NCBI GenBank assembly: GCA_945937975.1
Contig: CAMEUD010000001.1
Location: 1 to 54,498 of the forward strand
DNA from: an uncultured Clostridia bacterium
Lineage (GTDB): Bacteria; Bacillota; Clostridia; Christensenellales; UBA1242
Direction of reading: 5' to 3'
DNA length: 54,498 nt
The position numbers and the translations under genes are program-made. Shown here one piece after another: positions 5,141 through 53,304 of the stretch. Positions within the stretch are counted from its first letter, which is position 1. Each line of letters begins with the position of its first letter. Under the pieces are notes generated by a model. It made no database searches. It had not been told where the DNA came from and saw only the letters and a program-made list of their open reading frames with translations.

Positions 5141-8100
5141 ATGAGTGAAAAACAAATGGATTATGTAAATATAGACAAAATCCAACCTAATGATATTATT
5201 GCAAATTCACAACTTACAATTAATAGAAATTTTGCAGAACTTGCCGAGAAATTGAATAATATAATTCATCTTCTTGGCACAAATGGTGTATTCGATAATT
5301 ATTACCCAATTGATATTGAATGGAATAAATCTGATAATGGTATGATTTATGGTAATATGATTCTTAATGATGAATTAGAAACAGAATTACCAACACAACC
5401 ATTACCATTTGCAACTCAAGAAATGGGTGGTATATTGAGTACAACATCACAGGCAATCGCCGGCAATAAAACTTTTATCAATGATATAATATTATCATAT
5501 GATAAGCTTAATAAAAAATGGAGTTCATTAAAAGGTATTGATAGTAGACCTATTATTACCCAATACCCTAATAGTGTCGTTATTGGTGATCCATCAGATC
5601 CAAAAAAATCAATAAGTATTAATTATAAAGATGGTAAGGTTGTAAGTATTACATCTGGAGTATTTGATACAGAACAAATAAAAAGCGATTTTACTGACTA
5701 TCTAAATAGTGAATTAGCAAAACTTCAAGAAAAAATAATTTCTGGAATCACAGATGCTAATAAAAAGTTATGTGATTATTTCAAAATTCCTTTCGACCAA
5801 CAAAACGATAAAAAAATTGAAAATTGGTGGGGTAATACACATATCACTACTGAAAATAATACATTTATGATTTCTGGATCTCTAAATCAGAAACATTTCA
5901 TACCTTGGGATATCCTTGATATTCCAGACAATCATATTGGTGATACATATGTTGATATTGCGAATAGAAAGTGTTATATTTATCTTTCTGAAAAAAATAA
6001 TTATATTTGGACAGAACTTGATGGCGAACAGTTTAAAGGTATTATTCAAATATTATTAGATGCCGCAAATGCTTTAAGTGTTACCGATGGTATGTCAAGA
6101 ACATTTGTCAGTAATAATTGTCCAGAACCTCCATATGATAAAGGTGATATGTGGATTAAAACAGATAATCAAAATAACGCAGAATTACTTTACTGTATTA
6201 AATCAAAAAAAGCAGATGAAAAAGGTGATGAAAAGGATTGGGGGTCATTTACTGCTTATATTAAAGAAGATGCTCTTGATGCGTGGAAAAATGATTTGGA
6301 AGAACAATTAAAAAATCAATTAGATAAGAAAATATCTAATTGGTTTGGTGTTGGTTCTCCTGAAGGCGAGGACGGAAACCAAAAAAGACCTTGGTTAGAT
6401 GATTCTGATAGTGACTTTGATGAAGATAAATTCCACGAAAATGATATATATACAGATATAGGTAAACTCCCACAAGGAGAATCTGATGACGATCCTGATG
6501 TGTCAGCAACTGCTGGTTATACATGGGCATTTCTTAAACAAGATAATACATATAAGTGGATTAAAACTGGACAAATGTCTGCATTTGAACAGTTATTACA
6601 ATCTATTGGTGGTATTGACGGTATTAAAGATGGTTTAAGAGATTATTATTATGTTACTTATGGATATTGGAAACAAGAAGAACCTAAACATACACATAAA
6701 GTTGGTGATATTTGGGTTGTTAAGATTGATAATACTAATCCTAAGAATAATAATAAGAACTATCTTGAAAATGAGGTCTATATGTGTATGAAATCAGATG
6801 AAAAAAATCCTCATAAAGGTTGGGACAGCACACATTGGATGAGAATATTAAGTTCAACTGATTATAATGATTTAGTGGAAAAAATATCAAATACACAATC
6901 ATCATTAGATTCAATTAATAGAAAATTCACATCATTAAATGATGATAATGTATTTAGTCTTTTAGAAAAAATAACTATTAGAAATGAATGGTTAAAAATT
7001 AGTGGTGAATCAAAAGATTATTATGAGTCTAATAATCATAATAGACCTACTAGTACTGAAAATTTGTTGAACTATTATATTAATGGTTCATTTCATAACA
7101 CATATAAAATCATTCAGGATAGTAAGTTAGAATCATCAATTGATCAAAGTATATTATCAGGATATAAACAGTCATTCTTGATATTATCTAAGTATTTAAT
7201 TTCTTGTAAGTTGTTTGAGAATAGTGACACTCAGATAAGTGACATATCTCAACCATCATCAAAAAGTACAAATGCAAACACAGGAGATATCATAGATGAT
7301 AATATTTCTGTAGAAATAGTACAAAGACCAACGTTTAAAGATACATTACTATCTTATTTTACAGATTATTATACAAAAGAACAAAATATTTTAATCATTC
7401 TCCAAACACTAAAGACCATAAAGACACAAACTGATGGTCAAATTAGACAGTTTGCGGGTAACTGTCCTGTTTGGAAATATAAGTTCCCAGATTTTGAAAA
7501 TTGGGATTATGCTGATCATTTAGGTGATGTTTACAGAGATGTTAGTTCTGGAAATCCTACATCTGGTTGGTTATGGAGATTTACAGAAGGAGATCTAGAA
7601 GAAAATTGCAAAAAAGAAGATTTTCCTAATCCTACAGGTACTTTACCTATACCAAAAAATTTAGTCATTGAGGATAGTGATAGTGATAGTGATAGTGATA
7701 ATAATAAGATCTATCATTGGCATCATGAAACATCAAAAGAATTAGAAGATTTAGCAAACCGACTTGAAGAGTTAGCAAACAAATATCAAAATAGTGATGA
7801 TGATGATTTCACTTTGTTTGTCAAAAAACCAAATCCTTATATTTATCAAGCAGGAGATATCTGGATTGTTCATAAGGATGATTATAATGACAATAAAGGT
7901 GTTGAGTGTATGCCTAAAAACAATAATCAATATAGTTGTGCTAAACAAGGTGATTTCTTAGTTGCGATAAGTTCCAATACTACTGACACTGACGGTAAAC
8001 ATAATCCAAATGATTGGGAACTCACAGATGTTTCTGAATCCATCAAACAAAGCACTTTAGAAAAAAGTGGTTTTGATGTCGTAACTGATGGTACAACAAA

Positions 8101-26326: not shown

Positions 26327-27484
26327 TTATTTAAGTTTCTTAAAATGATTTACTTTCAGAAATTCTTTTATATTTTCCAATTCAAATAATTGGTCTGGAC
26401 CGATATTATAATGAAGAATATCATCTCTCATTTTATTATCCATATCTTTAACCAGATTATATCCTCTGAAATAAGTTGTCATCGGTTCACCAGATCTTAT
26501 TTCACAATCTTTATTTCTTCTTCTTGGTCTAACAATCGTTTTGAAAGCGGTGTAATCAGTCATATTTGGTGCTTGTTTCTTAACCCACTCAAACAAATCA
26601 CAGAAATCCATTTCATACATCAAATAAGAAATACAAGTTTTCAAAGAGATATTAAACAACACATTATCCTTTACTTTTTTCACTTTATTTAATGAATTCC
26701 AAACCGCAAGTCCTTCATCATAAGTTGAACTACTCTGTAATCCATAAGCAAATAACCATAAACCTGTTTCTTTTCCATAAAATCTTCTACCAACATGACC
26801 AGAAATTTCATGGGCAATTAAACCTTGAATATCTTCTTCAGAAAATCTTGATGTTTTATTTATATTTACATCACCCATTTTTACATTCATTCTAGGTAAC
26901 ATACCTGATTTAATGTGAACATCAAAATCAAATCCTAAATCATCAAGAGCATCTTCAATATCATCCTTACATTGTTCAGAATCAATGACTCTATCATTTT
27001 TAAAATCAGGTTTATGATAAGGATTTTTTTTCAAACAATCTAATGCATCTTGATAAAGTTTTTTATCAACTGGATTTTCCGTAACTTTATATTCTCCCTT
27101 TTCCAATTTATCTCTAATTTCAAGAGAATGTATCATAGATTCAATTTTATCAATATAAAATTTAACAATATAACAATCATTTTTTATATCTTCAAATTTA
27201 CCCATTAAAGCTTTAAATTTATCTATCATAGATAAATCAACTTCTGAATTTTCAATTTCAAGTTGTGGATAATATTTCTGACCATTTTCTCTGGCCTTCA
27301 TAAATTTATCAAATTCATCACGAATATTAACACATGTTTGAGCAACATATTTAGTCCTAAACTTTTCTATAAGTTTATGATATTCCTCATCCAGTTTCAA
27401 TAATGTGGATTTAGTTTCATTCGTCATTTTAAAGACACTTTGAGACTCAAATAAAAAATCTGTGAAATTAAGTATCATTATCAA
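26327..27484 (-). CDS. DUF1704-type zinc metalloprotease-like protein (HExxH plus EGLA motif)
   Basis: LIAHEISGHVGRRFYG is an HExxH motif. It is followed by STYDEGLAVWNS, which matches the (Q)EGLA signature I recall for DUF1704. The gene has its own class-B motif and terminator. Confidence 0.55.
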   Translation of the reverse strand: MIMILNFTDFLFESQSVFKMTNETKSTLLKLDEEYHKLIEKFRTKYVAQTCVNIRDEFDKFMKARENGQKYYPQLEIENSEVDLSMIDKFKALMGKFEDIKNDCYIVKFYIDKIESMIHSLEIRDKLEKGEYKVTENPVDKKLYQDALDCLKKNPYHKPDFKNDRVIDSEQCKDDIEDALDDLGFDFDVHIKSGMLPRMNVKMGDVNINKTSRFSEEDIQGLIAHEISGHVGRRFYGKETGLWLFAYGLQSSSTYDEGLAVWNSLNKVKKVKDNVLFNISLKTCISYLMYEMDFCDLFEWVKKQAPNMTDYTAFKTIVRPRRRNKDCEIRSGEPMTTYFRGYNLVKDMDNKMRDDILHYNIGPDQLFELENIKEFLKVNHFKKLK

Positions 27485-28278: not shown

Positions 28279-28290
28279 TTTGTTATTTTT
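28279..28290 (+). promoter_or_regulatory. Class-A promoter-like motif TTTGTTATTTTT
   Basis: It abuts ATGATGATG (28291-28299). The hexamer TATTTT ends 7 nt before the third ATG. Confidence 0.5.
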
Positions 28291-29562
28291 ATGATGATGA
28301 AAACTTGTAATTACATAGAATTATTTGCTGGTGTGGGTGGATTCCACATCGGTTTAGATAATGCGAATAAGGATTTTTTTAAATGTGTTCTTGCAAATCA
28401 ATGGGAACCAAGTGTAAAAGACCAATTTGCAGCTAATATATATAAACAGAGATTCCCTGATGATTATCTTATTAATGATGATATCTGTAATGTGAAAGGT
28501 GATGATTGGGTTTGTGATATGATGGTTTTTGGTAATTGTTGTCAAGATTATTCTGTCGTAAGATCAAACACGTCATCTAAAGGTATTGAAGGTAAAAAAG
28601 GTGTTTTGTGGTGGGAAATCATACGTTTGATTAAAGAAATGAAAGTCAAACCTAAATATCTGTTACAAGAAAATGTTGATAGGATGTTAATTTCACCATC
28701 GACACAAAGAGGTAGGGATTTTGCTCTTATATTAAAATCTCTTGATGATTTGGGTTATGATGTTGAATGGAGAATTATCAACGCTGCAGAATATGGTTTT
28801 CCACAAAAACGAAAAAGAAGTTTTTTATTTGCTTGGCAAAGAAACTTATTTGATGTGAAAGATTTAAAAGAATGGGTTTTTAAAGATGGAATATTTGCAA
28901 CATCATTCCCAATTAAACAAGATTATGAAATGTCATTGATTAATGAATACCAGCTAATGGTTCCTGAAGATTGGGATTTAGTGGAAATCAGTGATAAATT
29001 TAATAAAGGTAATAAGAAATATAAAACACATAAGGCATTTGAAAATGCTGGTTGTTTAATTAATGGGAAAATTTATACTGTCAAAGTAACTGCGGATTAT
29101 AATGGTCCATATACTAATTTAGGAGATATTCTTGCAACTGGTGATGATAGAAATCTAATAACTGAAGATTTCTATATAAATGAAGCTGATATAGAGAAAT
29201 GGTCATATGTGAAAGGGCACAAGAAAATTGAACGGGTTAAAAAAGATGGTTTCAGATATATCTATAATGAAGGTTCTATGGCTTTTCCAGATTATCTTGA
29301 CAGACCAGCGAGAACACTTATAACAAGTGAAGGTAACACAACACCCAATAGGTTTACACATGTGATTAAAGACCCAATAAATGGAAGATACAGACGCTTA
29401 ATACCTTTGGAGTTGGAACGGATACAAATGTTCCCAGACAATCACACAGAAGGAACAACAGACAAAAAAAGAGCATTCTTGATGGGAAATGCGTTGGTTA
29501 CGGGAATAGTTACAAAAATCGGTGAAGAACTATATAAAAGACTTAAAGATGAAACAAACTAA
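28291..29562 (+). CDS. DNA (cytosine-5) methyltransferase, complete (motifs I-X in normal order)
   Basis: Motifs are I IELFAGVGGF, IV FGNCCQDYS (CCQ instead of PCQ), VI LLQENVDRM, VIII FPQKRKRSF, a TRD containing PARTLITSEG, IX RRLIPLELERIQMFPD and X MGNALVTGIV. The track start 28267 (TTG) was replaced by the ATGATGATG cluster at 28291-28299, which directly follows a class-A motif. The third ATG (28297) is also possible. Confidence 0.85.
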   Translation: MMMKTCNYIELFAGVGGFHIGLDNANKDFFKCVLANQWEPSVKDQFAANIYKQRFPDDYLINDDICNVKGDDWVCDMMVFGNCCQDYSVVRSNTSSKGIEGKKGVLWWEIIRLIKEMKVKPKYLLQENVDRMLISPSTQRGRDFALILKSLDDLGYDVEWRIINAAEYGFPQKRKRSFLFAWQRNLFDVKDLKEWVFKDGIFATSFPIKQDYEMSLINEYQLMVPEDWDLVEISDKFNKGNKKYKTHKAFENAGCLINGKIYTVKVTADYNGPYTNLGDILATGDDRNLITEDFYINEADIEKWSYVKGHKKIERVKKDGFRYIYNEGSMAFPDYLDRPARTLITSEGNTTPNRFTHVIKDPINGRYRRLIPLELERIQMFPDNHTEGTTDKKRAFLMGNALVTGIVTKIGEELYKRLKDETN

Positions 29563-30082
29563 ATTATCAGATATTATAGAAAAAAATGTTGATGATAAAT
29601 TATATTTGAAGAAAAAAGATTTTGAAAAAAGAAAATATCTTAAAATCTCATTATATAGAAATTGTACAATAAATGGAGATATTGTAACCATTGAAAAAGA
29701 TGATATCAAACCACCACAGATTTTAAAGATAAAAAGAACAGAAGAAGAAAAAAGAAGAAGACGCCAATTCGGAGAAAAAGGACTCAAATTTGGTTCTGGT
29801 AAATTTTTAGATGTCACTAATGATGGATATTCAAATACATTAACGACATTTTCATCTGATAATTATGTTTGGGACAGAAATAATCAAGTAAGAGAATTAA
29901 CTAATTATGAAGCATTCAGATTAATGGATGTTGATGAAGCAGATACATTAAAGTTATTGGAAACAATTCCTAAATCACAATGTAAAAAATTAGCTGGTAA
30001 TTCAATATGTGTGAATGTATTGACGGAATTATTTAGAGAAATGTTTAATAGAAAAGAAAATCCAGAAAAATCATTATTTTAA
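29549..30082 (+). CDS. C5-MTase C-terminal half only (variable region, TRD, motifs IX and X)
   Basis: It starts MKQTKLSDIIEKNVDDKLYLKKK, the segment that normally follows motif VIII. It then has a TRD-like YSNTLTTFSSDN, motif IX RELTNYEAFRLMDV and motif X LAGNSICVNVL. It has no motifs I-VIII. The ATG at 29549 overlaps the upstream MTase stop by 14 nt (the track used GTG 29522). Confidence 0.7.
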   Translation: MKQTKLSDIIEKNVDDKLYLKKKDFEKRKYLKISLYRNCTINGDIVTIEKDDIKPPQILKIKRTEEEKRRRRQFGEKGLKFGSGKFLDVTNDGYSNTLTTFSSDNYVWDRNNQVRELTNYEAFRLMDVDEADTLKLLETIPKSQCKKLAGNSICVNVLTELFREMFNRKENPEKSLF

Positions 30083-30083
30083 T

Positions 30084-30542
30084 ATGAAACAATTAATCGT
30101 AATAGCAGAAAAAGAAGAACTTAAACTTGTCGAACAGTTGGAATTAAAGAATATTCCTGTTTTAATTACTGGTGTTGGTGCTTTAAATGTTATACAAGCA
30201 CTTAACGAACTCCCTAAAGACATCGAGATAATCAATGTTGGTTATGCTGGTAGTAAAAATTTGACACCTGATTTCTATGAAGTTGGAGTTGTGACATTGA
30301 ATCATCCTAATGTTGAATATCCAGAACCTAGATATTTTTGTAAGAGAACAGGGAGATATGCGTCAAAAACATGTTACACTGGTTGTGATTTTGTATTAGA
30401 TACTGAACTTGATGATTGTCTGTTTGATATGGAACTCGCATATATAAAGTCTTTGGGGTTTAAGAATGTTATTTCATACAAATATGTAAGTGATAATCTT
30501 GATTTACAAGAATATAGAAATAAAATTAATGAATCAGAATAA
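30084..30542 (+). CDS. Miniature PNP_UDP_1-family nucleosidase, MTA/SAH nucleosidase (MtnN/Pfs)-like
   Basis: 152 aa. By eye it aligns with E. coli MtnN as follows: MKQLIVIAEKEELKLV with MKIGIIGAMEEEVTLL; PVLITGVGALNVIQAL..IEIINVGYAGS with ALLKSGIGKVAAA..DVIINTGSAGG; CYTGCDFV with IVSGDAF; LFDMELAYI..YKYVSDNLD with AVEMEATAI..VRAISDVAD. Confidence 0.6.
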   Translation: MKQLIVIAEKEELKLVEQLELKNIPVLITGVGALNVIQALNELPKDIEIINVGYAGSKNLTPDFYEVGVVTLNHPNVEYPEPRYFCKRTGRYASKTCYTGCDFVLDTELDDCLFDMELAYIKSLGFKNVISYKYVSDNLDLQEYRNKINESE

Positions 30543-30582
30543 TGTTAAAGTTGGACTACATCAACAAGACATAATAATATAT

Positions 30583-30595
30583 TTTGTTATATTTA
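30583..30595 (+). promoter_or_regulatory. Class-A promoter-like motif TTTGTTATATTTA
   Basis: TATATT (30588-30593) ends exactly 6 nt before ATG 30600. Confidence 0.55.
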
Positions 30596-30599
30596 AGAT

Positions 30600-30797
30600 A
30601 TGGGTAGTGATATTAATGTAAATAAACGACTACAAGAAACATTCAAAAAACTATACTGTAGTGATAAACACGAAGGTTGTTATATACTTGATTGTTATAA
30701 TAATACAATATATGATAATATATCACCTACTATTACTACAAGATATAATGCGTCATGTAATATGTTTTTAGTAGAAATTTCTGAAAATGAAGAGTGA
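30600..30797 (+). CDS. TRD-only C5-MTase module (65 aa)
   Basis: It is a paralogue of the first half of ORF 30787 (MGSDINVNKRLQETFKK..ILDCYNNTIYDNISPTITTRYNASCNMFLVE against MKSDINKNTRLQRTFNK..ILDCYGCSISKKIHPTIMSTYANANNHFLVR), but it stops before motif IX. A class-A motif ends 6 nt before its ATG. Confidence 0.55.
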   Translation: MGSDINVNKRLQETFKKLYCSDKHEGCYILDCYNNTIYDNISPTITTRYNASCNMFLVEISENEE

Positions 30798-31194
30798 TAT
30801 TAATAAAAATACAAGATTACAAAGAACATTTAATAAATATTTCAAATTAAATGATACTGATTTGTGCATATTAGATTGTTATGGATGTTCAATAAGTAAA
30901 AAAATACATCCCACGATTATGTCTACATATGCAAATGCAAATAATCATTTTTTAGTAAGACAAATAAATAATAAAATGGCAAAATATTATAAAATCCGAA
31001 AATTCACACCAAAGGAATGTTTTAGATTGATGGGTGTTGAAGATGCAGATATTGATAAGTTACTTAATTCAGATTTATCTGATACACAACTTTATAAAAT
31101 GGCAGGTAACTCTATTGTTACAAATTGTATGACACATATGTTCGATAATTTGTTCATTAATAGACCTAAAAAGAAAGATATTGAATTATGGTAG
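30787..31194 (+). CDS. C5-MTase C-terminal half only (TRD, motifs IX and X)
   Basis: It has the TRD IHPTIMSTYANANNHFLV, motif IX IRKFTPKECFRLMGV and motif X MAGNSIVTNCM. It has no motifs I-VIII. It overlaps ORF 30600 by 11 nt and sits immediately upstream of the catalytic half. Confidence 0.7.
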   Translation: MKSDINKNTRLQRTFNKYFKLNDTDLCILDCYGCSISKKIHPTIMSTYANANNHFLVRQINNKMAKYYKIRKFTPKECFRLMGVEDADIDKLLNSDLSDTQLYKMAGNSIVTNCMTHMFDNLFINRPKKKDIELW

Positions 31195-31225
31195 AATAAA
31201 TGTTAAAGATAATGATATTTTAAAT

Positions 31226-31963
31226 ATGATAAATAAGTATACAAAAGAAAATCCTTTGAAAGTGTTTACAGCATTTTCTGGTTATGATAGTCAATGTTTG
31301 GCATTAAATAGACTTGGTATTGATTATGAATTAGTTGGTTGGAGTGAAATTGATGAGTATGCCATTAAAGCACATAATGTTCTTTTCCCACAATGGAGTG
31401 ACCGAAATTATGGAGACATTAGTGAGATTGATTGGAACCAAGTACCTGATTTTGACCTATTTACCTACTCCAGTCCTTGTACTGATTTTTCACAGGCGGG
31501 ATTACAATTAGGTGGTACTGAAGGTTCAGGAACCCGTTCATCACTATTATGGGAATGTAGAAAAACAATCATTACTAAAAGACCAAAATATCTGTTATTT
31601 GAAAATGTAAAGGCATTAGTATCTTATAAGTTCAAACATTTATTTGAAAAATGGTGTAAAGAACTTGAGTCTTATGGATATGCAAATTTTTATCAAGTTT
31701 TGAATTCTAAAGATTATGGGATACCACAATCAAGAGAAAGAATTTTTCTAATCTCAATTTTAAAAACAGAAGATGAACCAGACCCATATTATGAATTTCC
31801 TAAACCCATTGAATTGGATAAATGTGTTGAAGATGTTTTAGAAGATAATGTAGATGAAAAATATTATATGAGTCAAGATGCCGTAGATAAATATATTAAA
31901 CATTTACAAGAAGATTATCCTAAAGAAGATTGGGTAGTGGAAGATACAGTTAGTTTATGGTAA
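31226..31963 (+). CDS. C5-MTase N-terminal catalytic half only (motifs I-VIII)
   Basis: Motifs are I LKVFTAFSGYDSQ, IV YSSPCTDFSQAG, VI LFENVKAL and VIII IPQSRERIF. It ends after CVEDVLEDNVDEKYYMSQDAV.. with no TRD and no motifs IX or X. The shared part is highly similar to the full-length ORF 48045. I prefer ATG 31226 to the TTG at 31181 by analogy with ORF 48045. Confidence 0.7.
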   Translation: MINKYTKENPLKVFTAFSGYDSQCLALNRLGIDYELVGWSEIDEYAIKAHNVLFPQWSDRNYGDISEIDWNQVPDFDLFTYSSPCTDFSQAGLQLGGTEGSGTRSSLLWECRKTIITKRPKYLLFENVKALVSYKFKHLFEKWCKELESYGYANFYQVLNSKDYGIPQSRERIFLISILKTEDEPDPYYEFPKPIELDKCVEDVLEDNVDEKYYMSQDAVDKYIKHLQEDYPKEDWVVEDTVSLW

Positions 31964-31967
31964 AAAA

Positions 31968-31992
31968 GGAGAGGATTAATTCTCTCCTTTTA
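31968..31992 (+). terminator. Rho-independent terminator ending the split-MTase unit
   Basis: The hairpin GGAGAGGATTAATTCTCTCC is nearly identical to the one at 21356 and is followed by TTTTATTTTTT. Confidence 0.8.
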
Positions 31993-32058
31993 TTTTTTAA
32001 ATAAATTTCTATAAATAAATTACAATATCTTGATCATATATACATCTATTTTTATATT

Positions 32059-32071
32059 TTTGTTATATTTA
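32059..32071 (+). promoter_or_regulatory. Class-A promoter-like motif TTTGTTATATTTA
   Basis: TATATT (32064-32069) ends exactly 6 nt before ATG 32076 of the TRD-like mini-ORF. Confidence 0.55.
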
Positions 32072-32075
32072 TAAT

Positions 32076-32252
32076 ATGAAAAAAAAAGCAATAAATACAA
32101 CAAAAGATGGTCTTTGCAGAACTATAGTAAGTTGGTATGCGAAAGGTGGTCGTACGAATTTTACGAATTGGAAAGGAAATGGACATTTTGCAATGACCGC
32201 AGTTTTGGAAGAATATGAAGACACAGAAAGCAAAAAAGAAAATAATATGTGA
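32076..32252 (+). CDS. TRD-like mini-ORF (58 aa; below the track cutoff)
   Basis: My own translation is MKKKAINTTKDGLCRTIVSWYAKGGRTNFTNWKGNGHFAMTAVLEEYEDTESKKENNM. CRTIVSWYAKGG resembles the T-(L/I)..y.kG element of C5-MTase TRDs. The tail VLEEYED resembles FLVEISENEE of ORF 30600. A class-A motif ends 6 nt before the ATG. Confidence 0.4.
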   Translation: MKKKAINTTKDGLCRTIVSWYAKGGRTNFTNWKGNGHFAMTAVLEEYEDTESKKENNM

Positions 32253-32391
32253 ATACCATGGTTATGGGAAAGATGATTCTAGAGAAGGTTCACATTTAAT
32301 TCAACGAACAGACAAGAAAGTATGTTCAACTATAACGACATTAGTAAGTTTTAATAAAGTTATTGTTGAGATTTATGAAGATGACAAATAG
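32215..32391 (+). CDS. Second TRD-like mini-ORF (58 aa), +1 frame relative to ORF 32076
   Basis: My own translation is MKTQKAKKKIICEYHGYGKDDSREGSHLIQRTDKKVCSTITTLVSFNKVIVEIYEDDK. It contains CSTITT and ends IVEIYEDD like the other modules. It overlaps ORF 32076 by 38 nt across an A6 run (32232-32237). A hairpin terminator follows. Confidence 0.35.
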   Translation: MKTQKAKKKIICEYHGYGKDDSREGSHLIQRTDKKVCSTITTLVSFNKVIVEIYEDDK

Positions 32392-32407: not shown

Positions 32408-32436
32408 AGAGAGGTTAAACTTTAACTTCTCTTTTC
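32408..32436 (+). terminator. Rho-independent terminator after TRD mini-ORFs
   Basis: AGAGAGGTTAAA-C-TTTAACTTCTCT (one G-T pair), followed by TTTT. Confidence 0.7.
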
Positions 32437-32473: not shown

Positions 32474-34363
32474 ATGACTAAAACAATAGAAGAAAAATAT
32501 AAATCACTTTCTGAAGTGGAACATGTCAGAAAAAGATCAGGCATGTATCTTGGAAGCAAGGTTACAGAAAGAAGTGAACAATATATATTAGAAGATGGAA
32601 AGTTTATAAAGAAATTAGTTAATTATAATCCTGGTGTATTAAAACTATTTGATGAAATTATTTCTAATTCAGTAGACGAATCAAAAAGAAAAGGTAGTAA
32701 ATTAAATACCATTAAAGTTGAAGTAAATCAAGAAACTGGATATGTGGTTGTATATGACAATGGTGGTATCCCAGTTGAAATACATAAAGAGACTAAAAAG
32801 TATTTAGGAGAAATGCTTTTCGGGAGTTTAAGAACTGGTTCAAATTATGATGATACGGAACAACGAACTGTAGCTGGTACAAATGGTATAGGATCCGTTC
32901 TCGTTAATATTATGTCTGATGAATTTAAAGTGGAAACCGCTGATGGTAAACAAAGGTTTAATATGACTTGGACAGACCATATGTCAAATCACACCAAACC
33001 AAATGTTAAATTTTCCACATCACATTATACGAGAATTACCTATAAACTTGATTTCAATGAATTTGAAATGAATGGTATTGATAATGATTGTTTTAAACTA
33101 ATTGAAAAACGAGTATATGACGTTGCTGGTTGTAATCCTAATTTAACAATATTTTTCAATGGTAAAAAAATAATGATAAACTCTTTCAGAGATTATTGTG
33201 AAATGTATTTGGATAGTGAAAATGTATTGTTATATGAAGAAAATAAAAATTGGCAAATAGGCGTTTCTGTTTCACCTATAGGTAATTTTCAACAAATTAG
33301 TTTCGTGAATAATTGTTATACTTATGATGGTGGTACCCATAATGATTATGTATTGAATCAGATTATACCTACATTAAGAGAAAAGATTAGTAAGAAGTAT
33401 AAAACAGATGTGCTTCCTGGACAAATAAAAAACCATATATTTCTGTTCATCAATTCAACGATATTTAATCCATCTTTTTCAAGTCAAACAAAAGAAAAAC
33501 TCATCACAGACCAAAAGAATTTCGGAACAGAAATTAAATTAACAGATAAATTTATTAATTCAATATATAAAAGTGAAATAACAAATTCGATTACGGATTG
33601 GTTAGAACAAAAGAAAAATGCGGATGAAAAGAAAGCTGAACGAGAAGCGAACAAAGCAATTGCAAAAGTCAAGGTTGATAAATTGGTTGATTGTAAATGG
33701 GCTGGTGGATTAAAAAAATCAAAATGTAGATTGATTTTAACAGAAGGTGATTCAGCTATGTGTGCAATGAGAAAGTTTAGAGATCCTAATACAGATGCAG
33801 GATTAGCATTAAAAGGTAAATCATTGAATGTAAGAGATTTACCAAAAACAAAAGTTATGGAAAATACAGAAATTATGTCAGTAATGTCTGCTATGGGTTT
33901 AAGATTTGGTGAAAATCCAATTGTAATGACATCAAGTGGTAAGATAATAGAAGACAAAACAAGATTTGGTGAAATACAAATATATACAGATGCAGATGTT
34001 GATGGGACTTGTTGTGCGGCTTTAATACTTAATTATATACATAAATTTTGGCCATCTTTGATTAAAGCACATAAAATTGCAAGAGTGGAAACACCTGTGT
34101 TGATTGCAGAACATAAAAAAACAAAAAAAGAAACTTGGTTTTATTATGATAGTGAATATAGGGAATGGTTGGATAAAAATGATATAAATAACTATAATAT
34201 TCATTATTTGAAAGGCCTTGGTAGTTTAAATGATAAACAATCAAAAGAAATATTTCAAAATCCGCATAAGTATTATTATGAATTGGATGATTTTGCCGAA
34301 CAAAGTATGATAGATTGGTTTGGAAAAGATAGTGAACAGAGAAAGAAAATGTTATTAAAATAA
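32474..34363 (+). CDS. Type II DNA topoisomerase large subunit (GHKL ATPase plus Toprim; T4 gp39(+gp60)-like)
   Basis: Motifs are LSEVEHVRKRSGMYLGS, LKLFDEIISNSVDE, YDNGGIPV, GTNGIGS, Toprim LILTEGDSA and IYTDADVDG. ATPase and Toprim are in one ORF, not split as in T4 genes 39 and 60. Confidence 0.85.
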   Translation: MTKTIEEKYKSLSEVEHVRKRSGMYLGSKVTERSEQYILEDGKFIKKLVNYNPGVLKLFDEIISNSVDESKRKGSKLNTIKVEVNQETGYVVVYDNGGIPVEIHKETKKYLGEMLFGSLRTGSNYDDTEQRTVAGTNGIGSVLVNIMSDEFKVETADGKQRFNMTWTDHMSNHTKPNVKFSTSHYTRITYKLDFNEFEMNGIDNDCFKLIEKRVYDVAGCNPNLTIFFNGKKIMINSFRDYCEMYLDSENVLLYEENKNWQIGVSVSPIGNFQQISFVNNCYTYDGGTHNDYVLNQIIPTLREKISKKYKTDVLPGQIKNHIFLFINSTIFNPSFSSQTKEKLITDQKNFGTEIKLTDKFINSIYKSEITNSITDWLEQKKNADEKKAEREANKAIAKVKVDKLVDCKWAGGLKKSKCRLILTEGDSAMCAMRKFRDPNTDAGLALKGKSLNVRDLPKTKVMENTEIMSVMSAMGLRFGENPIVMTSSGKIIEDKTRFGEIQIYTDADVDGTCCAALILNYIHKFWPSLIKAHKIARVETPVLIAEHKKTKKETWFYYDSEYREWLDKNDINNYNIHYLKGLGSLNDKQSKEIFQNPHKYYYELDDFAEQSMIDWFGKDSEQRKKMLLK

Positions 34364-34451: not shown

Positions 34452-35789
34452 ATGAGAACCAAGACGATAAGTGATTTTTTAAATACTGATTATAAAGATT
34501 ATTCTATGTCAATAATTGAAGAAAGAGCAATTCCATCAGTAATTGATTCTTTTAAAAATGTTCAAAGAAAAATTATTGATATGTCTAATGAAATTTGGAA
34601 AACAGGAAATGAAAAACCAATGAAAGTTTTTCAATTGTGTGGTCAAACTTGTTCAAAAAAACTTTATGTGCATGGTGACACATCTTGTAACAATGCAATA
34701 ATCACTATGTGTCAAACATTTAAAAATAGTATTCCACTGCTTGAATCAGATGGACAGGTAGGAAGTCTTCGAGTTCCAGAATCAGCTAGTCCTCGTTATG
34801 TGGGTTGTTATTTATCTCCAAAATTTAGGTTTATTTATAAAGATTTTGAGTTAATTGAAAATAAAACTGAAGAAGGTCAAATTATTGAACCATTTTATTT
34901 TTTACCTATAATACCAACAATTTTAACTTGTGGAGCCCCTGGGTTAGCAGTAGGCTTCGCATCTAATATTCTTAATAGAAATCCTAAAGATATTATACAA
35001 GCATGTATAGATCATTTAAATGGTAAAAAAATTAAAGAGTTGAAACCATGGTTATCAGAATTTTCTGGTGAATGGGAACGAGATAAAGAAAATCAAAATA
35101 AGTGGTTTGCAAAAGGCAAATATGAAATCACAAAAAATGATGTTCATATAACTGAACTCCCACCAGATTGGACATTTGAGAAATATGAATCATATCTTGA
35201 AAGTTTAATTGATAAAAAGATTATCAAGGATTATGATAATAATTCCTCATCAGTTGTTGATTATATCTTAAAATTCAAGAAGGATGATTTACAGGAATTG
35301 ATAGAAAATGATAAACTTGAGAATATATTGAAGATTACAAGTTCATCTACAGAAAATCTTACAACACTTGATGAAAATGGTAAGTTAAAGATATTTGATT
35401 GTGCAGAAGATATAGTTAAATATTTTGTAGAATTCAGACTTGGTTATTATCAAAAGAGGAAGGATTATTTAATTGATAAGTTTAATAAAGAATTAAAGAA
35501 CTTGTGTTTTAAGGCTAAATTTATCAAGGCAATCATTGATAAAAAACTTGTTGTAAACAATACACCAAAACAGAAAATAGTGGATTGGTTGAATGATAAC
35601 AAGTTTGAAATGATTGATGGTTCTTTTAATTATCTGTTGAATATGCCTATTCATAGTTTGACTAAAGAAAGATTTGATGAATTGATGAACAATGCAAAGG
35701 ATAAGAAAAAACAACTTGAAGAAATCAAAACACGAGAACCAAAGGAAATGTATCTTGATGATTTAAAAGAGCTCAAGAAGAAATTATAA
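34452..35789 (+). CDS. Type II DNA topoisomerase DNA-cleavage subunit (T4 gp52-like, GyrA N-terminal type)
   Basis: YSMSIIEERAIPSVIDSFKNVQRKII is a GyrA/ParC-type N-terminus. SASPRYVGCYL contains the R-Y catalytic-tyrosine context. It lies directly downstream of the ATPase/Toprim subunit. Confidence 0.8.
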   Translation: MRTKTISDFLNTDYKDYSMSIIEERAIPSVIDSFKNVQRKIIDMSNEIWKTGNEKPMKVFQLCGQTCSKKLYVHGDTSCNNAIITMCQTFKNSIPLLESDGQVGSLRVPESASPRYVGCYLSPKFRFIYKDFELIENKTEEGQIIEPFYFLPIIPTILTCGAPGLAVGFASNILNRNPKDIIQACIDHLNGKKIKELKPWLSEFSGEWERDKENQNKWFAKGKYEITKNDVHITELPPDWTFEKYESYLESLIDKKIIKDYDNNSSSVVDYILKFKKDDLQELIENDKLENILKITSSSTENLTTLDENGKLKIFDCAEDIVKYFVEFRLGYYQKRKDYLIDKFNKELKNLCFKAKFIKAIIDKKLVVNNTPKQKIVDWLNDNKFEMIDGSFNYLLNMPIHSLTKERFDELMNNAKDKKKQLEEIKTREPKEMYLDDLKELKKKL

Positions 35790-36953: not shown

Positions 36954-36981
36954 AGAGTGAAATTTGAATTTCACTCTTTTT
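36954..36981 (+). terminator. Rho-independent terminator
   Basis: AGAGTGAAATT/AATTTCACTCT stem followed by a T-run that merges into the class-A motif. Confidence 0.75.
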
Positions 36982-36991
36982 GTTATTTTTA
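36979..36991 (+). promoter_or_regulatory. Class-A promoter-like motif TTTGTTATTTTTA
   Basis: It follows the terminator T-run, about 22 nt upstream of thyX ATG 37014. Confidence 0.5.
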
Positions 36992-37013
36992 CTTTAGTAA
37001 AAAAATTATAAAT

Positions 37014-37967
37014 ATGAAATTTGTAGAAGATAATGTCGAGTATCTTTCACAAGAACCAGGTGTGGAAGGTATGTATAAAATGATGGAACTTGCGGCGAGA
37101 CAATGTTACCTCACAACTGATTTGATTAAAGACGGCTCCGCACATAAAATTATTGATGAAGTATGTATTCCACATGGACACACTTCTGTAATTGAATTTG
37201 GAACAGTATATCTGATTATTCCATTGTATTATAAATTTGTTATTGAATCATATCAAGAAGATAGATATTCAAGAGTTAATATTGTTGGTGACAATGCGTA
37301 TGTTACAACAACATTTAGAACAATTCTTCAAGGAGATTATAAGGATCCTATAGAGGCAATTAAAAATAATTTTGATAAACATTGGAAAGATGACTTGAAA
37401 TTTTGGTCAGAACCTACTGAACACCACCATAAGAGATACTGTTTCAGATTTACTATGGATAGGGTTGGTAGTCAATCAGTCGTAAGACATAGAGGAACTT
37501 GGGGGATTTCTTATGCTCAGGAGTCAACTAGATATGTGAATTACAACAGAGATAAGTTTGACCATGAAATTATGGTATCAGTACCTTCTAAATTTTATTC
37601 TTTAATTGATGAATGGTCATTGAGAATTGATGAGAATGGTTTTGATTATAAGTGGTTAAAAGATGCACCATTTGAAAAACAACTTGTATTTTTAAGAGAA
37701 CATGATAAAGGTTGGCAAGTTTATGAGCATTCATTATTAACGGCAGAAAGAGATTATATGACACTCATTTCAGATTATTGTTGGAATACTGAAGATGCAA
37801 GAGGTGTATTGAATCTTGATATAAAAACACAATTTATGATGTGTGCTTATATAGAAGATTGGAAAATGTGGTTATTTAGAAGATGTGATAAACATGCACA
37901 TCCACATATACAAATGTTTGCCAATATGGTGAAAGAAAACTTTGAAAAATTGGGTATCAATATATAA
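37014..37967 (+). CDS. thyX: Flavin-dependent thymidylate synthase ThyX
   Basis: SVVRHRGTWGISYAQESTRY contains the ThyX RHR..(S)..Q.S.RY signature. I prefer the start at 37014 (MKFVEDN), because the track extension from 36957 covers the upstream terminator and class-A motif. Confidence 0.8.
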   Translation: MKFVEDNVEYLSQEPGVEGMYKMMELAARQCYLTTDLIKDGSAHKIIDEVCIPHGHTSVIEFGTVYLIIPLYYKFVIESYQEDRYSRVNIVGDNAYVTTTFRTILQGDYKDPIEAIKNNFDKHWKDDLKFWSEPTEHHHKRYCFRFTMDRVGSQSVVRHRGTWGISYAQESTRYVNYNRDKFDHEIMVSVPSKFYSLIDEWSLRIDENGFDYKWLKDAPFEKQLVFLREHDKGWQVYEHSLLTAERDYMTLISDYCWNTEDARGVLNLDIKTQFMMCAYIEDWKMWLFRRCDKHAHPHIQMFANMVKENFEKLGINI

Positions 37968-48044: not shown

Positions 48045-49235
48045 ATGAAATACAACAATGATAGACCATTAAGAGTTTTTACAACTTTCTCAGGATATGA
48101 TAGCCAATGTTTGGCATTGAAAAAAGCTGGCATCCCATTTGAACTTGTTGGATGGAGTGAAATTGAAAAAAGGGCTATTGACGCACATAATATTCTTTTT
48201 CCTCAATATTCAGATAAAAACTATGGTGACATCTGTAAAATAGATTGGTCACAAGTACCTGATTTTGATTTCTTTACATATAGTTCTCCTTGTCAGTCAT
48301 TTTCAATTGCAGGCTTAAAACAAGGTGGTGAGGAAGGTTCTGGAACAAAATCATCATTATTATGGGAATGTAAGAAGGCGATAGAAATCAAAAGACCAAA
48401 ATACTTGATGTTAGAAAATGTAAAAAATTTGGTGTCTAATAAATTCAAACCAACATTTGACAAATGGGTTTCTTATTTGGATTCACTTGGTTATACATCA
48501 TATTGGAAAGTATTAAATGGTGCAGACTATGGAATTCCGCAAGCAAGAGAAAGAGTGTTCTTGGTTTCTATTTTGAATCCAGAAGGTGATTTTGAATTTC
48601 CAAGACCAATTAAGTTGCAGAAGTGTATGAATGACTTTTTACAGAAGCCAAGTGAAATTCCTGAAAAATGTTATGTTAGTCAAGTTTGTATAGATGAATA
48701 TGTCAATAGTAATCCACATTTATTACAATTTGCGGGTGAAACAAATGATGATGAAATCGTGACACGAACGATAAATTCTGACAAATATACGGATGTTGTT
48801 AAAATGGGTAAACAAACAGAATTCGTATCACAAGTTGTTAAATCATTTGATGAAGAAATAGAAGTTAATTTATTTGGTGAAAAAAATAAAAAAGTTGATG
48901 TTGGTATGTATAATCAAATTCTACAGATAGGTAATATCCGAACAGATAGAGAAACATTTCCTAATCCACAATCAACAAGAATATATTCACCTAAAGGTTG
49001 TGCACCCACATTTACATTAGTTTATGCACCACTCATTTTTGTTAAAGAGAATGGGGTGTATAAAGTACGAGAAATGACTGGAGTTGAAGAAATGAGATTA
49101 ATAGGGGTTGAATATGATGATGTTCAAAAACTTGTTGATATGGGATTGGATAATACGAAATTATGTAAATTGGCTGGTAATTCCATCGTCGTAGATGTTA
49201 TGTCATATTTTTATAAAGAATTAATAAATTATTAA
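48045..49235 (+). CDS. DNA (cytosine-5) methyltransferase, complete
   Basis: Motifs are I LRVFTTFSGYDSQ, IV YSSPCQSFSIAG, VI MLENVKNL, VIII IPQARERVF, a TRD with CAPTFTLVYAP, IX VREMTGVEEMRLIGV and X LAGNSIVVDVM. A class-A motif ends 6 nt before the ATG. Confidence 0.85.
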   Translation: MKYNNDRPLRVFTTFSGYDSQCLALKKAGIPFELVGWSEIEKRAIDAHNILFPQYSDKNYGDICKIDWSQVPDFDFFTYSSPCQSFSIAGLKQGGEEGSGTKSSLLWECKKAIEIKRPKYLMLENVKNLVSNKFKPTFDKWVSYLDSLGYTSYWKVLNGADYGIPQARERVFLVSILNPEGDFEFPRPIKLQKCMNDFLQKPSEIPEKCYVSQVCIDEYVNSNPHLLQFAGETNDDEIVTRTINSDKYTDVVKMGKQTEFVSQVVKSFDEEIEVNLFGEKNKKVDVGMYNQILQIGNIRTDRETFPNPQSTRIYSPKGCAPTFTLVYAPLIFVKENGVYKVREMTGVEEMRLIGVEYDDVQKLVDMGLDNTKLCKLAGNSIVVDVMSYFYKELINY

Positions 49236-50646: not shown

Positions 50647-51753
50647 ATGAAACCATTATTTAAATATCCAGGCGGAAAATTTAATGAATATAATAATATT
50701 AAAAGATTTTTTCCAAAAATGATTGAAAACTATTTTGAACCATTTTTTGGAGCAGGTGGAGTATTTTTCAATTTAGTTAATGAACATAATATATTGGGTA
50801 ATACATATATAAATGATTATTCTGATAGTTTAATTGACTTCTATAAATCTGTGAAATCACAGGATTTTATTAATGAATTAGAGAAACTATATAATGCATG
50901 GGAGTATATTAAAGATTTTTCAGAAGAGTTTTTTAATATGTATGGTATGAAATTTGCAGAAATGTTATGTAATCATAACAAAGAACAATTTATAGATGAT
51001 GATATTTTTATCTATATTAAAAATAAAATAAATGTGTGTGATTATGATTTTCATGGATTTTCATTGATTGATAAAATTGTATTGTCAATCAATGATAAAT
51101 ATAAAAGATTTTCTAAAAAAGAATTAAAGTTTGATATTGAAGATACTGTATATAATTGTATAACAACAAGTATATGTCAAGCATTTTATTTTACAATAAG
51201 AGATATGTATAATGATTGGAATAATCATAATAATAAGCTCAAATATACTATATATGAAAGGAGTTCTCATTGGTTATTTATACGTGAATTCTGCTTTGGA
51301 TCTATGTTTAGATATAATTCTTCTGGTGATTTTAATGTACCATATGGAGGATTTGGATATAATTCTAAATGTTTTAAATGTAAAATAAACGCAATATCAA
51401 ATATTGATGTGAGAAATATCTTTAATCAAATAAGTATTGAGTGTTTAGATTTTGAAGATTTTATAAGTAATCATACATATGGAAATGATGATTTTATGTT
51501 TTTAGATCCACCATATGATTCTACATTTACAGATTATGATAAAAATAGTTTTACAAAAGATGATCATAAGAGATTAATGGAATGTCTTAAAAAATGTAAA
51601 TGTAAATGGTTAATGGCAATAGGTAAAACAGATTACATAATGGATTTATATAAGGATTTTAATATAATTGAATATGATAAAACATATATGTATCAAGCAA
51701 GAGGTAATTATGATAATAAACACACAAAACACATTATTGTAACAAATTATTAA
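50647..51753 (+). CDS. N6-adenine DNA methyltransferase, Dam/D12 class
   Basis: The N-terminal FKYPGGKFNEY..YFEPFFGAGGVFFNL is the SAM-binding motif. FMFLDPPYDSTF is the catalytic DPPY motif. It is longer than typical Dam because of an insertion between the motifs. Confidence 0.8.
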   Translation: MKPLFKYPGGKFNEYNNIKRFFPKMIENYFEPFFGAGGVFFNLVNEHNILGNTYINDYSDSLIDFYKSVKSQDFINELEKLYNAWEYIKDFSEEFFNMYGMKFAEMLCNHNKEQFIDDDIFIYIKNKINVCDYDFHGFSLIDKIVLSINDKYKRFSKKELKFDIEDTVYNCITTSICQAFYFTIRDMYNDWNNHNNKLKYTIYERSSHWLFIREFCFGSMFRYNSSGDFNVPYGGFGYNSKCFKCKINAISNIDVRNIFNQISIECLDFEDFISNHTYGNDDFMFLDPPYDSTFTDYDKNSFTKDDHKRLMECLKKCKCKWLMAIGKTDYIMDLYKDFNIIEYDKTYMYQARGNYDNKHTKHIIVTNY

Positions 51754-52338: not shown

Positions 52339-53304
52339 ATGTCAGTAAAAAATTTAGACACAATATTGTGGACAGAAAAATATCGTCCCAATACTTTAGA
52401 TGGGTGTATTTTACCAAAGAGAATTAAGACAATGCTTGAAGATGGTGTTAAGATGAATATGTTATTTTATGGTACCGCTGGTATTGGTAAAACTACTACA
52501 GCGAAAGCACTATGTCATCAATTTGGTCACAATACACTTTATATTAATGGTTCAACAGAAAACTCTATTGATACTATTAGAACAAAGATTACAGATTTCG
52601 CACTGAATCAATCAATTCTTCATTATGACAATCCAATAAAAATTGTTTTGATTGATGAGTGTGATGGGTTTAGTCAACAAGCGTGGCAAGGTATGAGGGC
52701 AACAGTGGAACAATATGCCGCAAATACAAGATTCATTTTAACTGCAAATTATGAAAACAAGATACCAGATCCTATTAAGTCTCGTTTCCAGATGATTGAT
52801 TTTAATTTCACATCAGAAGAAACAAATGAGATTAAGAAGGGTCAGATACTTCGAGTTATTGACATTTGCAAGTCTGAAGGTATGACAATTGATAAAATGG
52901 CAGCGGTAAAAATGATTCAAAATTATTACCCTGATATGCGTTCAATCGTTAATCATCTACAGAAATATTATCTTGAAGGTAAGACCAATTTAACAGAATC
53001 TGATATCAAAGATTCAACCAGTGAATTTGCTGAACTGTATGATATGATCATCACAAAAGACAATCCTCTTGAAAACTACAAATTTGTAATGAAGAACTAT
53101 TCAAATTGTGTTGATGAGGTTGTCGCATCACTTGGTAACCCATTTATGGAATATATTATGAAGTCCAAACCTAATCTTATAGGTAAACTTCCGATTATTG
53201 CGGTACTTAATGCCAAATATCAAATGAATTTAAAAAATTGTATTGATCCAGTTATTGTTGCACTGGCGAACATTTATGAATTACAAATGGAAATTCAGAA
53301 ATAA
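52339..53304 (+). CDS. Clamp loader AAA+ subunit (T4 gp44-like / RFC small subunit-like)
   Basis: LWTEKYRPNTLDGCILP aligns with T4 gp44 EQKYRPSTIDECILP. The Walker A region GTAGIGKTTTAKALCHQ aligns with GTGKTTVAKALCHD. It also has Walker B VLIDECD and SRF. Confidence 0.85.
   Translation: MSVKNLDTILWTEKYRPNTLDGCILPKRIKTMLEDGVKMNMLFYGTAGIGKTTTAKALCHQFGHNTLYINGSTENSIDTIRTKITDFALNQSILHYDNPIKIVLIDECDGFSQQAWQGMRATVEQYAANTRFILTANYENKIPDPIKSRFQMIDFNFTSEETNEIKKGQILRVIDICKSEGMTIDKMAAVKMIQNYYPDMRSIVNHLQKYYLEGKTNLTESDIKDSTSEFAELYDMIITKDNPLENYKFVMKNYSNCVDEVVASLGNPFMEYIMKSKPNLIGKLPIIAVLNAKYQMNLKNCIDPVIVALANIYELQMEIQK

Follow-up and report, generated by a model that had tools for sequence, protein, structure and literature searches.

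The cytosine C5 DNA methyltransferase (C5-MTase) M.AquI of Agmenellum quadruplicatum works as two polypeptides, of which the large one provides motifs I-VIII and the proximal variable region and the small one the distal variable region and motifs IX-X (PMC3404938). The Bacillus phage enzymes SPR, phi3T and rho11s combine several target recognition domains (TRDs) with one catalytic core and protect against many restriction enzymes, and a review from 2025 still places the multispecific TRDs of phages "in a single polypeptide" (PMC12707154). In the circularly permuted enzymes of type H (M.BssHII, M.Alw26I, M2.Eco31I, M.Esp3I and M2.BsaI), motifs IX-X precede motifs I-VIII (PMC5944983), and in Type I restriction-modification (R-M) systems recognition resides on a separate, exchangeable HsdS subunit carrying two TRDs (PMC12707154). 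M.EcoHK31I and laboratory fragment complementation (M.BspRI, M.BsuRI, M.HhaI and M.SssI) illustrate that C5-MTases tolerate being made as two polypeptides, even as overlapping fragments. To our knowledge, although C5-MTases of the split, permuted and multispecific kinds have each been described, the recognition domain is covalently joined to some portion of the enzyme in all of them. Here we describe an island of C5-MTase pieces in a stretch of 54,498 nt (contig CAMEUD010000001.1 of assembly GCA_945937975.1, hereafter the window), which is a phage fragment of 28% GC. With modest confidence, we are inclined to read this island as a modular multi-subunit C5-MTase system beside an ordinary single-chain enzyme. 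Its separate pieces, which are conserved in many huge phages, would probably assemble in different combinations against several host restriction enzymes.

The island comprises eight consecutive open reading frames (ORFs) on the plus strand (28291-32391), all of which had been listed in an initial annotation made from the letters alone and were found in place. A Pfam search matched PF00145 to four of them only. The first, 28291-29562, encodes a complete single-chain C5-MTase of 423 aa that covers profile positions 2-323 of 324 (E 1e-55) and is the only ORF of the island with all motifs and a TRD in one chain. Chalf (29549-30082, 177 aa, ending in EKSLF) is a stand-alone C-terminal piece, which opens with a repeat of the DxLExNVDxKxY segment that also opens the variable region of alpha and continues with a TRD and motifs IX and X (PF00145 positions 187-323 only; TIGR00675 181-329). 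Beta (30787-31194, 135 aa, ending in DIELW) is likewise a stand-alone piece with a TRD and motifs IX and X. Its PF00145 match spans positions 269-322. In a single-chain enzyme with four TRDs (L008 4885-6333), the last TRD and motifs IX and X align with residues 11-124 of beta, whose N-terminal TRD is homologous to that last TRD. The catalytic half, alpha (31226-31963, 245 aa, ending in TVSLW), carries motifs I-VIII (FSGYDSQ, SSPCTDFS, ENV and QSRER present) and the segment opening the variable region, ends after NVDEKYYMS..., and has no TRD and no motif IX or X (PF00145 positions 4-216). Alpha alone cannot be a complete enzyme. For these four ORFs, the profile coverage bears out the motif content that the initial annotation had assigned, one complete enzyme, one catalytic half and two complementary TRD+IX+X parts.

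The remaining four ORFs (30084-30542, 30600, 32076 and 32215) gave no Pfam match. The mini-ORF 30600-30797 (65 aa) is TRD-only and represents a tandem copy of the TRD region in beta, aligning with beta residues 1-63 (45% identity over 64 aa, E 2e-13). Gamma1 (32076-32252, 58 aa), also TRD-only, and the TRD-like gamma2 (32215-32391, 58 aa, in the +1 frame) correspond to the N-terminal and C-terminal modules of a double-TRD protein (hidden Markov model (HMM) E 2e-30 and 1e-27, respectively). Besides the complete enzyme, the island has five TRD-bearing or TRD-like modules, namely Chalf, 30600, beta, gamma1 and gamma2.

The island shares with M.AquI the division of labour between a large subunit, here alpha (245 aa), and a small one, here Chalf (177 aa) or beta (135 aa), as well as a slight ORF overlap. 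It differs from M.AquI in that one alpha is accompanied by several alternative small subunits and by an IX-X piece upstream of alpha, in that the small subunit of the relatives has no TRD, the TRDs lying on a third protein, and in being a phage orphan system rather than part of an R-M pair. While SPR, phi3T and rho11s are one chain, the TRDs of the island lie in separate ORFs and frames, some of them as TRD-only ORFs, and no polypeptide of the island carries tandem TRDs on a catalytic core as those enzymes do. The order of IX-X before I-VIII along the DNA resembles type H. Those enzymes, however, are single chains of the order TRD-IX-X-I-VIII, whereas the window encodes beta and alpha as two ORFs that differ in frame (beta ends at the TAG of 31192-31194 and alpha starts at 31226) and do not form one circularly permuted polypeptide. 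The fused relatives on L016 and L017 begin just before motif IX and carry no TRD, which is another permutation point. The small polypeptide of M.EcoHK31I gives only motif IX, the laboratory complementation systems are artificial, and none of them has three parts or exchangeable TRD subunits. With HsdM/HsdS there is an analogy only: the conserved gamma also carries two TRD modules, but fold and chemistry are unrelated (N6-adenine versus C5-cytosine) and there is no homology.

The same 423/177/152/135/260/58/58-aa layout was found in three independently assembled contigs of about 98% identical phages (L028-L030), to which the shorter contigs L031 and L032 add only the 58+58 pair. These sister contigs come from different runs (SRR30769931, SRR30770062, SRR30769978, SRR30770051 and SRR30770026). 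The same piece boundaries also recur in relatives at 60-80% protein identity (L002/L004 and L033-L039). Numerous homopolymer runs in this AT-rich genome could favour errors in the sequencing or assembly of a metagenomic contig, but since the breaks are identical in independent assemblies and the boundaries persist in diverged relatives, we regard the chance that the ORF breaks are such errors as negligible. The breaks proposed in the initial annotation are genuine.

A common order is followed in L033, L035/36 and L037/38 and in the IMG/VR relatives L002/L004 and L039. It begins with a complete C5-MTase (or an N6/N4 enzyme), followed by the Chalf orthologue of 177-179 aa and the orthologue of ORF 30084, and continues with a 112-aa TRD+IX+X gene, unrelated small genes, a 71-80-aa beta, alpha and a TRD-only protein. 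The leading enzyme in L033, L035 and L037 is an orthologue of 28291-29562 (415-428 aa), and stand-alone Chalf orthologues are 58-68% identical in L002, L033, L035, L037 and L039. Beta of the relatives is the IX-X part only and starts 5 residues before motif IX (MKKYKIRKLTPREC...). The occurrence of IX-X before I-VIII, first noted as a reversal, is therefore the normal order in the clade rather than a peculiarity of this genome, and the multi-ORF layout is likewise not unique to it, recurring in unrelated phages too. Between the 112-aa gene and alpha, L033-L038 contain conserved ORFs of 53-109 aa (for example a Cys-rich protein of 72-95 aa) and a DUF7487 gene. Judged against these relatives, the island of the window is a reduced, partly eroded version of a larger one.

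Alpha has homologues in more than 120 clusters, at 74-98% identity and 242-260 aa in length, on contigs of up to 411 kb. An exception to this length range are a few intein-bearing forms of 401 aa. The intein is inserted at motif IV (C...HN between SSP and CTDFS) and was seen in L002 (4840-6489), L039 (4757-6007), P0113, P0115, P0118 and P0120, and the catalytic Cys of these alphas is the +1 extein residue. Beta, for its part, has end-to-end matches among stand-alone proteins of 133-139 aa (P0240, P0246 and P0263). Among its 150 nearest 50%-identity representatives, 116, or about three-quarters, are shorter than 260 aa, start with Met and have neither the PC nor the ENV motif, so that stand-alone C-terminal pieces are the rule in this subfamily.

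Downstream of alpha, gamma1 and gamma2 had been regarded as independent modules, but our comparison makes them the halves of one ancestral 112-aa double-TRD gene. In L033, gamma is a single ORF of 112 aa that overlaps the stop codon of alpha, with its first half 62% identical to gamma1 and its second half 47% identical to gamma2. Because this one ORF matches both halves, the 58+58 split is attributed to a lineage-specific frameshift in the linker. A profile search with the gamma family returned 116 clusters, mostly of 105-141 aa and without a Pfam domain, and gamma lies 0-400 nt downstream of alpha in L002, L033, L035, L037, L039 and the window. As far as these homologues indicate, the conserved state is a free-standing double-TRD protein beside alpha. 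The two modules occur as separate ORFs again in some lineages (P0201 and P0205), and L039 has only module 2. Orthologues of gamma2 are free-standing in L039 (62 aa) and form the N-terminus of a 162-aa protein in L002.

Gamma1 and gamma2 of the window had no match in Pfam, PHROG or NCBIfam. In the PF00145 proteins P0222, P0218, P0226 and P0228, a gamma1-type module is fused to IX-X, immediately in front of motif IX (profile E 1e-8 to 1e-7), and we read gamma1 as a TRD because this is exactly the place of a TRD. Gamma2 is tentatively assigned by its tandem position after gamma1 and by the shared pattern x-[ST]-T-[IL]-T-T...h-V-E-h-Y-E. Of the three mini-ORFs initially called TRD-like, 30600 and 32076 are thus supported by homology, and 32215 by context and weak pattern similarity only. 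A link of gamma2 to motifs IX-X, which had been indicated by hhalign of the gamma alignment against beta and the L008 enzyme and also by a first gamma2 HMM, was discarded as an artefact. It arose from TRD+IX+X rows (P0222 and P0218) aligned into the gamma2 columns and vanished when these were removed.

The ratio of non-synonymous to synonymous substitution rates (dN/dS) was 0.02-0.3 for every piece. Values were 0.06-0.10 both for alpha and for Chalf (Chalf 0.06-0.07 among L033, L035 and L037 alone), 0.02-0.07 for the 112-aa TRD+IX+X gene, 0.09-0.31 for the IX-X-only beta and 0.04-0.08 for gamma, these last three among the same three contigs, and 0.13-0.24 for gamma2 (0.19-0.23 between the window and L002 and L039). 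ORF 30084 had 0.03-0.19, the complete enzyme 28291-29562 had 0.08 versus L029, and 30600 about 0.25, a value from just four synonymous and four non-synonymous changes. In comparisons of L033, L035 and L037, synonymous changes approach saturation, yet the proteins are conserved. Because every piece is under purifying selection, the island is not a dead gene, and the substitution patterns indicate that its pieces are working genes in the clade rather than pseudogenes.

Related arrangements occur in other phages. Motifs IX-X are fused to I-VIII, without a TRD, in one ORF of 440-451 aa in L016, L017 and L021. Strings of 43-73-aa ORFs flank the fused ORFs of L016 and L017. All of these small ORFs have a Met of their own and a TRD-like core, and some match the gamma1 profile (L017, E 1.4e-6). 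The unrelated phages L001, L003 and L006 have several TRD mini-ORFs, alternating in frame, downstream of alpha, and behind these a TRD-IX-X or IX-X piece. In L001, the row of TRD mini-ORFs is interrupted by an HNH homing-endonuclease-like gene (7253-7669), an insertion that fits with module boundaries that are real boundaries between genes.

According to our analysis, the conserved pair of alpha and IX-X-only beta has no TRD unless gamma supplies one, since alpha stops before any TRD and beta starts just before motif IX. The only TRD-bearing partners in the relatives are Chalf, the 112-aa gene and gamma. A TRD provided in trans is the simplest reading of this arrangement. The initial proposal of one catalytic half served by alternative TRD/IX-X pieces and by free TRDs has thus become more credible through conservation, selection and the fusions, while structure prediction gave it no support.

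Several observations weigh against a modular system, and those that concern erosion also speak for an alternative in which a once single-chain multispecific methyltransferase is decaying and the pieces are functionless pseudogene fragments. The third TRD+IX+X gene survives in the window only as a stub of its first ~14 codons (MNQNNVKVGLHQQD, ~45 nt; 30528-30575, plus strand), recognized by DNA alignment with L033, L035 and L037, where the intact counterparts of 112-113 aa lie at 1863-2201, 2784-3122 and 3830-4171, respectively. Beta is disrupted in other members of the same phage species, by a nonsense codon in the TRD part of L028 (window-equivalent position 30883), and, in protein collections, by the loss of 41 aa with motif IX (P0237) and by an altered C-terminus (P0268). 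Sister phages of ~98% identity have ATT in place of the ATG of 30600 and no ORF is called there, though the frame is still open, so that 30600 may be decaying. In this species, the third TRD+IX+X gene, beta and 30600 look dispensable. The frameshift that split gamma belongs to the same series. Turning to gamma itself, the match of gamma2 to the 30600-type TRD is a weak one (HMM, E 0.04). AlphaFold2 modelling of gamma from a 62-sequence alignment reached a predicted local distance difference test score (pLDDT) of 61.8, module 1 scoring less than 50, and a Foldseek search of the PDB with the model gave no match. The natural TRD+IX+X protein P0222 was modelled at a pLDDT of 52.6, with its TRD part below 50. 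A literature search found no experimentally shown C5-MTase with its TRD on a separate polypeptide, and alpha could work only with Chalf and beta, with gamma having another role.

Decay of the whole island is nevertheless quite improbable, and for the clade it is largely refuted already. It conflicts with the low dN/dS of every piece at near-saturated synonymous sites, with piece lengths that are constant over hundreds of clusters, with starts conserved at module boundaries and with the retention of inteins in alpha. Inteins are normally kept only in expressed, needed genes. The existence of at least three distinct broken beta alleles in the natural population suggests that the specificity of beta is dispensable in some hosts, and an eroded copy would fit a turnover in which specificity cassettes are acquired and lost with changing hosts. 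Two further remnants were noted in the window, ATGGTAGAATAA at 31188 (31188-31199) and ATGGTAAAAAAGG at 31957 (31957-31969), both of which are dead versions of the ancestral overlapping ATGGTA starts. In the relatives these starts overlap the preceding L-W-stop (TTA TGG TAR). The stub and the two dead starts show past rearrangement of the island. The segment 31995-32056 of the window is absent from the sister strains.

A more serious alternative, which we still consider unlikely, holds that only M.AquI-like heterodimers (alpha with Chalf and alpha with beta) work and that the TRD-only proteins are DNA-binding regulators, decoys, inhibitors or chaperone-like stabilisers. Two-piece split C5-MTases are experimentally known (PMC3404938), no precedent for a TRD in trans was found, and stand-alone TRD+IX+X pieces are very common among the relatives of beta. 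In addition, isolated gamma yielded no confident fold and matched no methyltransferase structure. These low-confidence models are uninformative, as isolated pieces may fold only on assembly. Restricting activity to such heterodimers, however, leaves unexplained why a TRD-less IX-X beta is kept beside alpha in every relative under purifying selection, and why TRD-less IX-X/I-VIII fusions lie amid TRD mini-ORFs in L016 and L017. It is also at odds with the homology of gamma1 to the TRD directly before motif IX in PF00145 proteins. Free-standing TRD subunits have no published description that we could find, and as most subscription journals and REBASE lay outside the search, this absence is not proof.

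The ORF junctions raise the further alternative that programmed frameshifting or transcriptional slippage joins the ORFs into ordinary longer chains. Overlaps of 14, 11 and 38 nt, each placing the downstream piece in the +1 frame, had been described before and follow from the coordinates, and all three junctions take the form xAT GAA -> ATG AAx, with the downstream ATG embedded in xAT GAA. The uniform +1 shift could be taken as a sign of joining, as could the A6 run in the 32076/32215 overlap (GAA AGC AAA AAA GAA AAT), over which both frames are open for 38 nt, and the single ORF of the ancestral gamma gene. No canonical slippery heptamer was found at the junctions, however, and each module has its own conserved Met (MKKKAINT, MRKPINV, MRVIPINT and MLRIMMNT). 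The pieces of the relatives are parted by unrelated genes, a terminator or the promoter motif, the frame is -1 in L002 and +1 here, and single-module ORFs stand separately in other lineages (P0201 and P0205). Given that relatives use -1 junctions and that every module has its own Met, programmed frameshifting was rejected as the main mechanism behind the +1 rule, and joining of the ORFs by either route appears highly improbable.

If the island is a modular system, alpha would pair non-covalently with Chalf or beta, like the alpha of M.AquI with its beta, and each of these pairs would have its own TRD and its own target. The gamma proteins would dock on alpha and the IX-X part of beta and add specificities in trans, resembling HsdS for HsdM. 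Translation of neighbouring pieces may be coupled by the short overlaps, with the ATG lying in xAT GAA here and in TTA TGG TAR in the relatives. Together with two single-chain C5 enzymes and a Dam-like enzyme, the system would pre-methylate replicating phage DNA at many motifs and thereby blunt restriction. The second of the single-chain enzymes lies outside the island at 48045-49235 (plus strand, 396 aa, PF00145 2-323, E 5.5e-55) and is a paralogue of alpha (62% identity over its N-terminal 220 aa), with 45% identity to the IX-X part of beta. The Dam-like enzyme is a D12-class N6-adenine methyltransferase at 50647-51753 (plus strand). Besides the split system, at least three complete DNA methyltransferases are therefore present in the window.

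Expression in three transcription units, as proposed initially, is plausible. A motif opens each unit: a one-mismatch copy (TTTGTTATTTTTA) of the motif TTTGTTATATTTA at 28279-28291, whose last base is the A of the ATG at 28291, and exact copies at 30583-30595 and 32059-32071, 4 nt before the ATG of 30600 and of 32076, respectively. Terminator-like intrinsic hairpins follow the second unit (31964-31991, a 12-bp stem and then a T run, directly after 31963) and the third (32408-32432, after 32391), all of these features being on the plus strand. In the window the motif is enriched, with 52 matches compared with 24 expected and none of 100 shuffles reaching 52. Exact plus-strand copies start at 2697, 20551, 30583, 32059, 34435, 38528, 48028 and 53334, and those checked are separated by 4 nt from the start codon that follows (30600, 32076 and 34452). 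The phage probably uses the motif as a promoter or initiation signal, which makes the picture of three units a reasonable one. No Shine-Dalgarno sequences were evident, and a sigma-70 promoter scan of the window gave 45 hits versus 39 expected from shuffles, which is not above expectation.

Chalf, beta and alpha share a further feature, in that they are the only ones among the 121 ORFs of the window to end in L-[FW], apart from one spurious minus-strand ORF. The end LW is present in 118 of 120 alpha homologues, and 104 of the 150 nearest representatives of beta end in [LIM][FW]. The consensus of these 104 is Q(-5) L(-4) [TES](-3) L(-2) F(-1), where 79 have the Q at -5, 90 the L at -2 and 97 the F at -1. 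Binding to the bacterial beta-clamp, which has two identical sites, depends on a usually C-terminal motif, QL[S/D]LF or QxxLF (PMC12309361, PMC4549789). The full consensus of this motif is present in relatives, whereas the tails of the window (EKSLF, DIELW and TVSLW) deviate from it, having no Gln and, in two cases, a Trp. Because single-chain members of the subfamily carry a QLxLF-type tail as well, the tail is a trait of the subfamily and not of the split. An interpretation of C-terminal L-W as purely a docking motif was rejected, as the start codon that overlaps it in TTA TGG TAR dictates these residues in part or more; the same constraint leaves the L-F ends unexplained. The tails suggest that the replication fork may recruit this subfamily of phage C5-MTases. 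We found no paper linking phage DNA methyltransferases to clamp-binding motifs. DNMT1 is recruited to PCNA, and the clamp-binding tail of this subfamily, if functional, would be a bacterial-virus counterpart. A broader proposal, which we put forward tentatively as a possibility, is that the C5-MTases of many phages are built like Type I systems, from a TRD-less core (I-VIII and IX-X, as two pieces or as one permuted fusion) and exchangeable free TRD proteins made from strings of translationally coupled mini-ORFs, to which gathering on the clamp via QLxLF or xxxL[FW] tails may add.

The only ORF of the island that is not made of C5-MTase parts, 30084-30542 (plus strand, 152 aa), possibly encodes a nucleosidase of the methylthioadenosine/S-adenosylhomocysteine (MTA/SAH) type, with NCBIfam matches below the curated cut-offs. 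NF004168 scored 22.4 bits (cut-off 129; E 8.5e-5) and NF005522, the MTA/SAH nucleosidase model, gave E 0.04. The orthologue in L037 matched NF004168 over residues 2-154, almost its entire length, with E 7.4e-7, still below the curated cut-off. No match to ORF 30084 was obtained in Pfam, PHROG or the sequences of the PDB. In the relatives it is kept inside the island, directly before the TRD+IX+X gene. If it is an SAH nucleosidase, it would clear a product inhibitor of methyltransferases.

The island is flanked by a minus-strand metallophosphatase gene on one side and by topoisomerase II on the other. T4-like replication genes of the window comprise the topoisomerase II subunits (32474-34363 and 34452-35789), ThyX (36957-37967) and a gp44-like clamp loader (52339-53304). 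By topoisomerase II, the closest deposited relatives are uncultured phages of 634-642 kb, at an identity of only 47%. A DNA-level search of the island against deposited phages returned no match, nor did tblastn of gamma and Chalf against deposited phages or a search of gamma against GTDB genomes. An alternative genetic code was rejected, every long ORF being intact under table 11. Elsewhere in the window, a 385-aa protein (26327-27484, minus strand) carries a MATCAP domain match (PF08014, E 1e-15) and a HEISGH metalloprotease motif. The name of this family comes from a eukaryotic tubulin carboxypeptidase, which makes its presence in a phage unexpected.

Should the modular system hold true, a recognition domain that exists as a separate, swappable protein in a conserved natural system would be new. 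For epigenome engineering, nature would thereby offer a template on which split or programmable cytosine methyltransferases could be modelled. It would also change how orphan methyltransferase fragments and "hypothetical" mini-ORFs in phage metagenomes are annotated. For the phages themselves, it would mean a cheap diversification of anti-restriction methylation, by gaining, losing and duplicating cassettes of 150-200 nt.

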